64,000 nucleotides of DNA from Gemmatimonadota bacterium (lineage in GTDB: Bacteria > Latescibacterota > UBA2968 > UBA8231), in NCBI GenBank assembly GCA_038153405.1, contig JAYOYH010000002.1:1-64000 (forward strand), read 5' to 3'. The first letter of the stretch is position 1, and each line of letters begins with the position of its first letter. The notes beneath the pieces are model-generated. The model did no database searches. It was not told the origin of the DNA and was given only the letters and a program-made list of their open reading frames with translations. This document shows, piece after piece, positions 54,313-57,375 of the stretch. The translations under genes and the position numbers were made by a program.

Positions 54313-54714
54313 CTAGGCGCTGCGCCGCTGGTCAGAAGAAGCCTGTTTGGGCAGGTAGTACTCGCTCATATAGTGCTTTTTGCAAAAGCCGCGCGAAGAG
54401 TGCTTTTCGGCACAGCCGGGCACCAAGCACAGTTTGCGACCGTAAATGCGTTCGCGCTCCGGCGTCAGGCGACCGTAGCGGCGAACCTGCTGGTAGTGGC
54501 GAAAGCAATATGCTTTGGCGGCCTGCTCCTCGCCGCACCCCACCACGACGCATCCGTTGCCCCGCTTGCCGTATTCGCGCTCCGGCGTCAAGCGCCCATG
54601 CCTGCGCATCTGCTGGTAGTGGCGCGGACAAAAACCGCACGTGCGCGCCTCCACTTCGCATCCATCGGCCTTGCACAGGATGTGCCACTTCGCTTTGAGT
54701 ATCTTGTTTTCCAT
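54313..54714 (-). CDS. Small basic protein with three C-x4-C-x9-C-x2-H-Y zinc-finger-like repeats
   Basis: CKADGC..GFCPRHY / CVVVGC..AYCFRHY / CLVPGC..GFCKKHY; SD AGAGAGG before ATG 54714. Confidence 0.85.
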   Translation of the reverse strand: MENKILKAKWHILCKADGCEVEARTCGFCPRHYQQMRRHGRLTPEREYGKRGNGCVVVGCGEEQAAKAYCFRHYQQVRRYGRLTPERERIYGRKLCLVPGCAEKHSSRGFCKKHYMSEYYLPKQASSDQRRSA

Positions 54715-54763
54715 GGTGACCCTCTCTATGCGTGACATACACTCGACTATACAACGCCACACC

Positions 54764-54779
54764 AGCAAAGGACGTACCG
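54764..54779 (-). promoter_or_regulatory. sigma54 (-24/-12) promoter for the zinc-finger gene
   Basis: CGGTACGTCCTTTGCT gives GG-N10-GC with TTGCT at -12. Confidence 0.65.
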
Positions 54780-54875
54780 CATGAAAACAACGGAATGGTA
54801 GCCGCGCTTAAAATTTCATAAAGAATTATTTTTACAATTCTTACAACAAAGACGGTAAAATGTATCGCCACCGTC

Positions 54876-55004
54876 TATGAGAAAGGCTTGTCTCATATAT
54901 GATACTGGCCGGAGACCGAGGCGCACGCTAAATACTTATTTTTAAAGGATTAATGGAGCATACAGGACTGTGTCAATTATGAGACAAGTATCTCAAATTT
55001 GACA
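54876..55004. promoter_or_regulatory. Palindromic candidate upstream activator sites (TGAGA..TCTCA)
   Basis: TATGAGA-N8-TCTCATA (54876-54897) and TGTCAA-TTATGAGACAAGTATCTCAAAT-TTGACA (54971-55004). Confidence 0.5.
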
Positions 55005-57375
55005 CTTCACGTAGCAAATCGTGCTCTCTCAGCCGGCGATACAGGGTCGCTCTGCTGATCCCAAGCCGCGCAGCGGCTTTGACCACGTCGCCTTCTTCCG
55101 CGCGCAGCGCCTCCAAATACAGGCGGCGCACGGCTTCGCGATGGCCCTTTTGCGCTCCCTCAAAGCCGGAATCCTCGGCACCGCTGGCCAACTCCGCTTC
55201 CTGCAACAGGCTCGGCGGCAAATCTTCCAGCGCAATGGTTCGATCTTTGACTAGGGCGACGGCGTGCTCTATCGCGTTTTCAAGTTCGCGCACGTTGCCC
55301 GGCCACGGGTAGCGGGACAGTAACTGGAGGGTCTCGGGGTCAACGCGCGTAACAACTTTGCCATTGCGCTCGGCAAATACGCGCACAAAGCGCTCGACAA
55401 AGAGGGGGATATCTTCCTGGCGCTCTCTCAGGGGTGGAACGTCCAGCGCGATTACGTTGAGCCGGTAGAGCAGGTCTCTGCGAAAGCCTCCCCCCTCGAC
55501 TTCGCGGTGCAAATCGCGGTTGGTCGCCGCAATCAGGCGACAATCGATGGGGATGGTCCGATCGCCGCCGACGCGAACGATCGTCTTTTCCTGTAGAACG
55601 CGCAGCAATTTCACCTGCACTTCGGGAGGGACTTCGCCAATTTCATCGAGGAATATCGTTCCACCGCTGGCCAACTCAAACTTGCCCAAGCGCCCCTTTT
55701 TGCTGGCGCCGGTAAAGGCGCCTTCGACATAGCCAAAGAGCTCACTCTCGATGAGATCGCGCGGCAGAGCAGCGCAGTTAACTGCGAGGAAAGGCCCCTC
55801 ACTAAAGGCACTCGCATTGTGAATGGCCTGGGCAAACACCTCTTTGCCGGTGCCGGTCTCACCCTGAATGAGAATATTGGAACTCGTCCCTGCCGCGATG
55901 CGCGCCAGCTCTTTGGCCTTTTCTATCACCGAACTGTTGCCGATGATGTCATCGAAGGAATAGGTGCGCTGAACACCGATAACCCGATGCACTAGCCGCC
56001 CCACTTCGCCCATCTCGCGAAAGGTTAACACCGCGCCAGTCGTCTGTCCTTCGCCGTCCATAACCGGCTGTAAATTGGCCATGGCGGCAACGGCACCCAC
56101 GGTGGCGCGCAGCGTTATCACCCTGTTGTTGAACTGCCCCCCCTCGGCCAACCACGAGCGCAGCGGCGGTTTGTCCTCGACCAAGTCATCCGCACGCACG
56201 CGCTCATCGCCGGTGATGCGACGACCGAGAATGCGAGCGGCGACGGCATTGATCTCCTCGACGTAGCCATCGCGATCAATGGCGATCAACCCATCCGAAA
56301 TGGACTGCAGCAGGGCCTGGGAGCGGCTGTAGAGCTGTCGGAGCTGCGCGCCCTGCTGTTTTTCGCTGCGCACGAGCTCCTGCAAGCGCCCCGTCAAGCG
56401 AATGTCTTCAATTTCTGCGGCGATCTGGCTCGACAGGGCAAATAGCATACTGAGATCGTCTATGCTAAAGCGGCGGCGCTCCGTGCCCAGCGGCGCAATT
56501 TTATCAAAGAGCGTCAGCGTGCCAACAATGCGATCTTCCAAGACGAGCGGCACGCAGACCATAGACGCGCCCAGATCTTGGGGATTTCGCGGCGCCCTCA
56601 CGTCGTCTATCATAATCGGCTCGCCGGTCGCAGCGACGTATTCGGCGATGCGCCTTTCGCACTGCAGATCCAACTCGTTTTCCGTCTCGATAACTACCGT
56701 AGCCAAGGCGAGCGAACCATCTTCGACGAGCAGGCGGATGGCTGCTCCTTTCGCCCGCAGCACATCGGCCGCCAAGCTGGCAATCAGCTCTAACGACTCG
56801 TCCAAGCCGAGCCCGGAATTCATCGCCTGCCCCAACTCATTGAGCGCCTGCACTTCGTCGGAACGCCGCTCCATAGTCTGACGCACTTCCACCGCGTTGA
56901 TCAACGCCAGAACGAGGCTGCGCGCAGCTTCTAGGGCGCCCACCTCGTCTGCGCTATAGCGGCGCACGGCTACACTCTGCAGGTTGATTACCCCGCGCAA
57001 CTCGCCGCCATCCTCAATCGGCACGGCGATGATGCTGGCGTAGCTCTCGGCCTGTGCGACCTTCGCCAATACGGCGGAGCGGGGATCGCGTCCCATGTGC
57101 GGAACCTGGACGATTTTCCGGTGCAATCCCGCAGCGCCGGTTATGCCTTGACCGAGTCGCAGTCGGACTGCTTGCCCCTGCACCGGACCGTGCGACGCGC
57201 TCAGAACGAGCTCGTCCATGCGCCCGTCGAGCAAATAGAGCGCACAAAAATCGGCCCCGAAAGTCTCGGCAAAGAGGCGCACGAGCGCATTTAAGCTCGT
57301 TGGATCCGGAGATGCAATATGGGCCAGCGTCTGGCGCCACAGTTCTCGCTCTATATTGAAGGACTCATTTACCAT
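54973..57375 (-). CDS. sigma54-dependent activator with GAF-GAF-PAS sensors and Fis HTH
   Basis: Two GAF-like regions (GQGITG...SIIAVPI; IMIDDV...VCVPL), PAS (SISDGLIAIDRDG..INAVA), [40 protein letters not shown]. Start placed at ATG 57375. Confidence 0.9.
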   Translation of the reverse strand: MVNESFNIERELWRQTLAHIASPDPTSLNALVRLFAETFGADFCALYLLDGRMDELVLSASHGPVQGQAVRLRLGQGITGAAGLHRKIVQVPHMGRDPRSAVLAKVAQAESYASIIAVPIEDGGELRGVINLQSVAVRRYSADEVGALEAARSLVLALINAVEVRQTMERRSDEVQALNELGQAMNSGLGLDESLELIASLAADVLRAKGAAIRLLVEDGSLALATVVIETENELDLQCERRIAEYVAATGEPIMIDDVRAPRNPQDLGASMVCVPLVLEDRIVGTLTLFDKIAPLGTERRRFSIDDLSMLFALSSQIAAEIEDIRLTGRLQELVRSEKQQGAQLRQLYSRSQALLQSISDGLIAIDRDGYVEEINAVAARILGRRITGDERVRADDLVEDKPPLRSWLAEGGQFNNRVITLRATVGAVAAMANLQPVMDGEGQTTGAVLTFREMGEVGRLVHRVIGVQRTYSFDDIIGNSSVIEKAKELARIAAGTSSNILIQGETGTGKEVFAQAIHNASAFSEGPFLAVNCAALPRDLIESELFGYVEGAFTGASKKGRLGKFELASGGTIFLDEIGEVPPEVQVKLLRVLQEKTIVRVGGDRTIPIDCRLIAATNRDLHREVEGGGFRRDLLYRLNVIALDVPPLRERQEDIPLFVERFVRVFAERNGKVVTRVDPETLQLLSRYPWPGNVRELENAIEHAVALVKDRTIALEDLPPSLLQEAELASGAEDSGFEGAQKGHREAVRRLYLEALRAEEGDVVKAAARLGISRATLYRRLREHDLLREVSNLRYLSHN

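Follow-up and report, generated by a model that had tools for sequence, protein, structure and literature searches.

The DNA considered here (the window) is a stretch of 64,000 nucleotides, positions 1 to 64,000 of contig JAYOYH010000002.1, from a bacterium of the Latescibacterota whose 4.86-Mb genome is designated G000; coordinates are those of the window unless another contig is named. Its minus strand carries, between greA and a cluster of translation genes, a two-gene cassette consisting of the gene for a sigma54 enhancer-binding protein (the activator) and the gene for a small basic protein with three cysteine- and histidine-bearing repeat units (the finger protein), the latter preceded by enhancer boxes and a -24/-12 promoter (Table 1). 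The activator gene, boxes, AT-rich spacer, GG-N10-GC promoter, Shine-Dalgarno sequence and 133-aa three-repeat open reading frame (ORF) of a preliminary description of this DNA are all present as listed. That description had also called the module self-contained, a view given up here because a second three-box sigma54 promoter exists elsewhere, on contig C36 of G000, which makes the system a small regulon and not a self-contained pair.

Table 1. Features of the cassette and its boundaries in the window.
Feature	Position	Strand	Basis or remark
Activator gene, sigma54 enhancer-binding protein, 800 aa (P0002)	54973..57375	-	GAF-GAF-PAS-AAA+-HTH
GAF1 (aa 28-150)	56926..57294	-	Pfam
GAF2 (aa 191-323)	56407..56805	-	Pfam
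PAS (aa 351-454)	56014..56325	-	Pfam scores just below cut-off; AlphaFold 2 model
AAA+ sigma54-interaction domain and lid (aa 477-729), GAFTGA at aa 552	55189..55947	-	Pfam, motifs
Helix-turn-helix of the Fis type (HTH; aa 755-784)	55024..55113	-	Pfam HTH_8
Enhancer box 1, imperfect palindrome RTCTCA-N4-TGAGAY, within activator 3' end	54990..55005		Matrix/pattern match
Enhancer box 2, spaced 20 nt from the first, across activator stop codon	54970..54985		Matrix/pattern match
Enhancer box 3, 126 nt upstream of promoter	54890..54905		Matrix/pattern match
AT-rich spacer, 86% AT, possible bending site	54808..54850		Composition
Sigma54 -24/-12 promoter, GG-N10-GC	54764..54779	-	Sequence pattern
Shine-Dalgarno-like GAGAGGG	54720..54726	-	Sequence
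Finger gene, 133-aa basic protein, three C-x4-C-x9-C-x2-HY units (P0001)	54313..54714	-	ORF; predicted treble-clef zinc fingers
GC-rich hairpin 3' of finger gene, possible terminator	54248..54284	-	Weak T-run; terminator scan did not call it
Sigma70-type promoter of tRNA-Gly/Thr-rpmG-tRNA-Trp-secE-nusG operon; downstream boundary, outside cassette	54206..54234	-	Sequence
Intrinsic-terminator-like hairpin after greA, belongs to greA and not to the cassette	57393..57420	-	Ends 17 nt before activator ATG

Besides both GAF domains and HTH_8, Pfam recognizes in the activator a Sigma54_activat domain (residues 477-644) and an AAA lid. The PAS domain falls marginally below the Pfam cut-off (21.6 versus 21.8 bits and 21.2 versus 22.6 bits), and an AlphaFold 2 model displays the order GAF-GAF-PAS. 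Walker A (GETGTGKE; pattern GxxGxGKE), GAFTGA and Walker B are all intact. With these AAA+ motifs, a C-terminal Fis-type HTH and N-terminal sensory domains, the protein is, as read from its sequence, a sigma54-dependent bacterial enhancer-binding protein (bEBP), although it reaches none of the curated NCBIfam cut-offs for PrdR, NifA, DhaR, NorR or FhlA (best PrdR, with 394 of 795 bits). Among activator orthologs, columns conserved in at least 90% of the sequences make up 10% of GAF1, 52% of GAF2, 47% of PAS and 57% of AAA+. Because GAF2 and PAS are conserved nearly as well as AAA+ and GAF1 is poorly conserved, the signal likely enters at the GAF2-PAS part, with GAF2 the likely main sensor. The nearest solved relatives of GAF1 include the GAF domains of PtsP; a role of GAF1 as a PtsP-like nitrogen sensor is weakened by its low conservation. 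A fold search with the GAF-GAF-PAS part returned generic tandem-GAF matches only and revealed no ligand.

The starts of boxes 1, 2 and 3 lie 226, 206 and 126 nt ahead of the promoter, and the spacer between contains only two-mismatch matches to an IHF consensus. When the intergenic region was shuffled 1000 times with dinucleotides preserved, two or more boxes never appeared, a single box appeared twice and the promoter never, a test that is partly circular, as its motif had been fitted on this locus and its kin. A matrix test is less circular because the matrix was derived from boxes of relatives, with the window's own excluded; in a scan of G000 its six best matches were these three boxes and three at one other locus. 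In orthologs the spacing is preserved, with boxes 1 and 2 lying 20 nt apart and box 3 lying 105-185 nt before the promoter, and rpoN was found in all 41 genomes examined. A GG-N10-GC element with palindromic upstream activating sequences (UASs) 100-250 bp upstream, kept in orthologs, is what characterizes a sigma54 promoter, and on these grounds of sequence the element is predicted to be one. The enhancer-dependent layout named in the preliminary description is thus borne out by the domains, the motifs, the three boxes, the promoter and their conservation.

The pair that the preliminary description had treated as one system does co-occur in other genomes. After removal of 10 duplicates from 42 sequences (the window and 41 loci), 32 distinct loci remained, 16 of which, the window included, have the order greA-activator-finger, followed by tRNA-Gly where the contig extends that far; the kin records bear such titles as Candidatus Latescibacterota, Handelsmanbacteria, Gemmatimonadota, Planctomycetota or uncultured-bacterium metagenome-assembled genomes. 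All 16 cassette loci have a -24/-12 match 47-71 nt before the finger ATG and at least one box, and 14 have at least two boxes (at most two mismatches each). A metagenome set of 80 loci (69 distinct) comprises 25 activator-linked loci, 21 activator-less loci and 23 with too little upstream DNA to class. A box is present in every activator-linked locus, at least two boxes in 24 and a strict promoter in 19, the remaining six scoring 9-11 of 12, whereas none of the 21 activator-less loci has two boxes. The finger occurs in 31 of 76 family genomes, the sensory half of the activator in 29 and both in 26; in the three activator-only genomes the gene lies at or near a contig end. By activator count the cassette is present, patchily, across 10 of 18 genera, and the other 92 genomes of the phylum yielded two partial matches only. 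As genomes and loci are kin, these counts are descriptive.

Several loci depart from this arrangement. In G159, both cassette genes are frameshifted and greA is intact, which is either joint decay or an assembly error. In G011, additional repeat units are present in a finger gene (L046, G011:C201), and at the greA site of this genome (L074, G011:C679) the activator runs into the last finger only, through either a deletion or a misassembly. At L122/L290 (G122:C1 near 4168500-4169900) a 427-aa ORF, transposase-like by reading rather than by family scan, lies between greA and the finger gene, and the activator is absent there.

Among 309 promoter-like sites in G000, three strong boxes are found at two loci only, the cassette and C36; their box scores are 64-66 bits, and the next best site scores 22.5 bits. 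The double-box pattern matches at the same two places only, and its reversed control matches nowhere. At C36 the boxes lie at 36223, 36243 and 36333 and the promoter at 36445 (L071:7223-7617, equal to G000:C36:36223-36616), ahead of a 40-aa ORF with a Shine-Dalgarno sequence (P0265; C36:36494-36616), the C-terminal half of which is hydrophobic (mean hydropathy 2.1 over 19 residues). P0265 has no Pfam or NCBIfam match at E<=0.01. Flp pilins carry a Gly where the prepilin is cleaved, with Glu-Tyr at positions +5/+6; this assignment was rejected for P0265, as there is no family match and the prepilin motif is absent in orthologs. A profile search found P0265 homologs in 8 of the 76 family genomes, all eight activator-positive, with a box at each of the eight loci and a strict promoter at seven; behind the peptide gene, several of these loci carry one or two extra small hydrophobic ORFs, so that two or three peptides stand in tandem. 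A search starting from the motif (box, 91-121 nt, promoter) matched 13 of 76 genomes, again all activator-positive (one match in the reversed control), and four of its matches were new beyond the peptide profile. G154 has three boxes and three tandem peptides, an operon missed by the profile, and G161 has three boxes at a contig end; the matches at G010:C5 and G163:C150, with a single weak box each, were taken as chance. The second target is therefore likely a single gene or a short operon encoding peptides of 30-45 aa that are predicted to lie in the membrane, and it would be the other member of the regulon. One RNA-library contig begins 13 nt before the peptide ATG, although such contigs cannot reveal transcript starts.

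The finger protein has an isoelectric point (pI) of 9.6 and holds 10 Cys and 6 His; its units start at residues 14, 55 and 96, with a period of 41 aa. Compared with its nearest relative, dN is 0.051 and dS 0.673 (dN/dS about 0.08), and in sequence terms the gene is a real one under purifying selection. Conservation across 75 relatives is 98-100% for all 12 Cys/His ligands and likewise for Arg-rich helix residues, and 86-100% when the ligands are taken together with the Arg-rich helix and with the RLTPE linker found in units 1 and 2. In four of four runs from two studies, part of the finger gene is covered by RNA-library contigs at 99% identity or more, which is not proof of transcription because the runs were chosen by this stretch and a 15-kb control also had scattered cover. 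No contig covers the enhancer region, an absence that is itself uninformative. The protein passes no Pfam or NCBIfam cut-off (DUF5763, 16.3 of 26.3 bits); many of its relatives carry DUF5763 or Zf_WRKY19, for which the window protein itself stays below the Pfam gathering cut-off. No relative was found by a sequence search of solved structures.

An AlphaFold model of the finger protein has three separate knuckle-and-helix units (pLDDT 73, pTM 0.31), and the nearest folds are treble clefs: A20 ZF7 (Z 4.2, rmsd 1.1, 31 aa), Rabex-5, the Lsr2 N-domain, GATA and CsfB. The preliminary description had spoken of CCCH repeats, and the C-x4-C-x9-C-x2-HY units do stand; the TTP-type CCCH finger does not, for its spacing is C-x8-C-x5-C-x3-H, a mismatch in all three units, and the nearest folds are those just named. 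In the available part of one account, a treble clef is built of a knuckle, a hairpin and a helix, and its ligands come in two pairs, one supplied by the knuckle and the other by the start of the helix (PMC4999995). Model and ligand pattern agree with this definition but do not prove it, and the units are predicted to be treble-clef zinc fingers. Like the A20 zinc finger, GATA, the Lsr2 N-domain and CsfB, they would combine knuckle, hairpin and helix with 2+2 ligands; unlike these, they are C3H units repeated three times in tandem within a stand-alone protein of a bacterium, with low scores and no solved sequence relative. A homodimer prediction scored 0.02, which is evidence neither way.

The finger repeat is widespread, with 6393 cluster representatives at E<=0.001, and its kinship to phage HNH proteins, already noted in the preliminary description, is supported from three sides. 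PHROG HNH profiles match the finger protein (phrog_5351 at E 6.7e-22, also phrog_1271), only the N-terminal repeat part of the profiles being covered; phage HNH proteins in BFVD match the finger model in Foldseek with E down to 3e-7; and partner domains were scanned in 115 relatives, mostly longer multi-repeat ones picked from 150 among the matches listed plus 9 others. The scan detected 15 HNH_3, 14 HNH and 5 EndoVII domains (34 nucleases) and one XRE HTH. In the part of the literature consulted, HNH_3 homing endonucleases are described as using tandem modular accessory domains for DNA specificity (PMC5714182). Because the repeat fills this accessory-domain slot, DNA binding is the best inference for the finger protein, which probably binds DNA. 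It shares the C-x4-C-x9-C-x2-H repeat with the N-terminal parts of phage HNH/EndoVII nucleases (phrog_5351, phrog_1271; Zf_WRKY19 and DUF5763 in relatives) and differs from them in being nuclease-free, chromosomal, at a fixed site, under purifying selection and under its own sigma54 promoter. The nuclease-free output of the preliminary description stands, the finger protein having no HNH Pfam match that would indicate a His-Me finger catalytic domain. Such proteins are not unique: nuclease-free three-finger proteins of 115-129 aa are also encoded in viral contigs (L227, L229, L231 and L233, in the range L227-L233). The phage stand-alone fingers sit in a conserved block near helicase, RNA-ligase-like, HNH and DNA-binding genes, and five such loci that were checked have no sigma54 motif upstream. 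A search of annotated phages with the finger gave a single weak match. The nearest finger cluster in the Atlas, mostly Latescibacterota, bears the automatic name 'putative Vegetative protein', reminiscent of the possible VegA link in the preliminary description.

Finger paralogs are found at other places as well. L047 (G000:C4:126270-126713, minus strand), with 56% identity, lies directly after an ABC-permease-like gene and has no sigma54 promoter or box upstream. A second class (L038, L040, L064, L177, L179, L183, L186 and L189) lies behind a gene of about 620 aa without a Pfam match; since this class comes with a sigma54 promoter of its own and, about 135 nt upstream, with another palindrome (TCAGA-N2-TCTGAG), its sequence suggests re-wiring to another activator. 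L072 (G000:C49:8117-10741, minus strand) is an 875-codon open frame with one C-x4-C-x9-C-x2-H unit.

On balance, we favor the view that the activator switches on a two-locus regulon, the adjacent finger protein (predicted to bind DNA) and the distant predicted membrane micropeptides, through the boxes and sigma54 promoters. The activator would be produced at a low level by read-through, which is likely because the strong terminator 17 nt before its ATG belongs to greA, and a cytoplasmic ligand or partner would act on the conserved GAF2-PAS part. HTH dimers on boxes 1-3 would then loop over the AT-rich spacer and open the sigma54 promoter, the same activator at three boxes opening both promoters once the signal relieves it. 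The regulatory part of this scheme is very probably correct as described. The finger would be the nuclease-free form of a module that precedes HNH/EndoVII domains in mobile nucleases, acting as a second-tier DNA-binding regulator or nucleoid protein. Nucleoid-associated proteins are abundant, bind DNA and oligomerize. Together, finger and membrane peptides might serve a change of cell state rather than a catabolic pathway, a guess made because no catabolic gene in G000 has three boxes and because of a loose chlamydial analogy; it is tentative and somewhat doubtful. More speculative still, and rather unlikely, is that this Latescibacterota family domesticated a phage homing-nuclease zinc-finger array as a chromosomal regulator or nucleoid protein and wired it, with a membrane-micropeptide operon, to a metabolite-sensing sigma54 switch for a cell-state change such as dormancy; if true, this would be a bacterial class of tandem treble-clef transcription factors of phage origin.

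A number of observations weigh against the two-locus regulon with a DNA-binding output. Dependence on sigma54 and rpoN, box binding and the start site are all deduced from sequence, and because G000 encodes 10 bEBPs, another of them could read the boxes. Because the kin are not independent, the counts overstate the case, and pairwise identities of activator and finger correlate weakly (Spearman 0.32, over pairs that are likewise not independent). The finger persists without the activator in five genomes (G003, G007, G009, G122 and G133, the last 58% complete), so that its role does not require this switch; in G009 and G122, each a single contig, the finger is kept and activator, boxes and promoter are absent. 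Profile matches to P0265 cover only 8 of the 29 activator-positive genomes. As to DNA binding, a DNA target for the finger did not turn up, no partner domain was detected in 80 of the 115 longer relatives, and for the nuclease-free phage versions no function is known. Matches at the level of structure are weak (best Z 4.2, pTM 0.31), the best of them (A20, Rabex-5) bind ubiquitin and not DNA, and Foldseek against the PDB at E<=0.001 gave no match for the finger model, with weak C2H2 arrays only.

The structural matches lend themselves to an unlikely alternative, in which the regulation is as described and the finger works as an anti-sigma or feedback factor by binding another protein, be it RNA polymerase, a sigma factor or the activator itself. 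The top matches are protein-binding treble clefs (A20 ZF7, Rabex-5, ZNF216), the anti-sigma factor CsfB is matched at Z 2.1, helices in the activator's GAF2 show unusual conservation and both genes decay together in G159, if decay it is. Pure feedback fits poorly with the intact fingers of G009 and G122, and the partner domains of the relatives (DNA nucleases or HTH), the basic pI and the conserved Arg speak for DNA. It is quite unlikely that the finger instead binds RNA (tRNA, rRNA or the ribosome) and tunes translation. Such a role would explain the site before a tRNA/ribosomal-protein operon, a site that 23 of the 25 metagenome loci with a linked activator keep fixed upstream of tRNA-Gly, and would suit a basic protein whose phage stand-alone versions lie near an RNA-ligase-like gene; yet that operon has its own sigma70 promoter, which directly follows greA in 13 of 14 cassette-less genomes, the finger paralogs sit in unrelated places and the spacing differs from that of RNA-binding CCCH fingers. 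The richness in Cys and His, in a short monocistronic gene with a Shine-Dalgarno sequence, would also suit a protein that stores zinc or buffers thiol redox state and is induced by a metal or redox signal, a very improbable role given that residues of the helix and linker that are not ligands vary as little as the ligands do and that no metal transport gene in G000 has three boxes. That a mobile HNH gene landed behind an orphan activator and left the small ORF as a relic without function, as the PHROG HNH matches, the 45 of 76 family genomes without a finger match and some broken paralogs might suggest, is largely refuted already by the low dN/dS, by promoter and box spacing conserved across genera and by the same architecture at the second locus, and is extremely improbable.

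The two-locus regulon resembles known systems in its logic, which is textbook as far as the consulted part of one source goes (PMC7175178); its outputs belong to uncharacterized families. GAF/PAS-type bEBPs (DhaR, PrdR, AcoR and NifA types) have the same domain order, GAFTGA motif, multiple UASs 100-250 bp upstream and a small adjacent regulon. In Clostridiales, according to the sections available, bEBP regulons are small, adjoin the activator and contain fermentation and amino-acid catabolism genes (PMC6615313); here, in contrast to the regulons in the parts of these two sources (PMC6615313, PMC7175178), the targets are a zinc-finger protein and micropeptides. The Chlamydia CtcC regulon is a large one with a different type of activator. 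It offers an analogy only, in that the sigma54 regulon, in the portion of the report available, includes the histone-like hctB along with many membrane proteins (PMC7482065). Within the literature covered, no account of this system, no paper on Latescibacterota and sigma54 and no paper on DUF5763 was found. The locus thus offers a precise, testable regulon in an uncultured phylum (activator, 16-bp site, two promoters and outputs) and a stand-alone, selected member of a very large uncharacterized repeat family. A binding result for the finger would give a function to a module found on many phage nucleases, and sequence-specific DNA recognition, if it exists, would make the finger a modular zinc-finger array of a kind unusual in bacteria.

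The flanks of the cassette bear on its boundaries. The earlier placement between greA and the translation cluster is correct, with no sign of transcription shared with that cluster, which has its own sigma70 promoter. In cassette-less genomes, this promoter and tRNA-Gly lie within about 500 nt after greA in 13 of 14 cases (the 14th is G122), and because they directly follow greA without the cassette, the latter is an insulated unit at a fixed site that is patchily kept. The greA terminator hairpin is kept after greA in the cassette-less G134, G136 and G143, and the same stem sequence occurs in many family genomes, with one copy in G000. This conserved hairpin was rejected as a target of the finger, as it also follows greA in genomes without the cassette. 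A TTGACA inverted repeat before tRNA-Gly was likewise rejected as a cassette element, being the -35 of the sigma70 promoter and present without the cassette too. Inverted repeats at 54182-54244 overlap the -35 and +1 of the tRNA-Gly promoter and are partly conserved in relatives. In the greA leader, a hairpin with a T-run (57954-57978, minus strand) may be an attenuator comparable to the one in the leader of E. coli greA. Genes resembling an SbcD/SbcC pair (58074-62437, plus strand; so named on features of their sequence) are divergent from greA and syntenic in many relatives.

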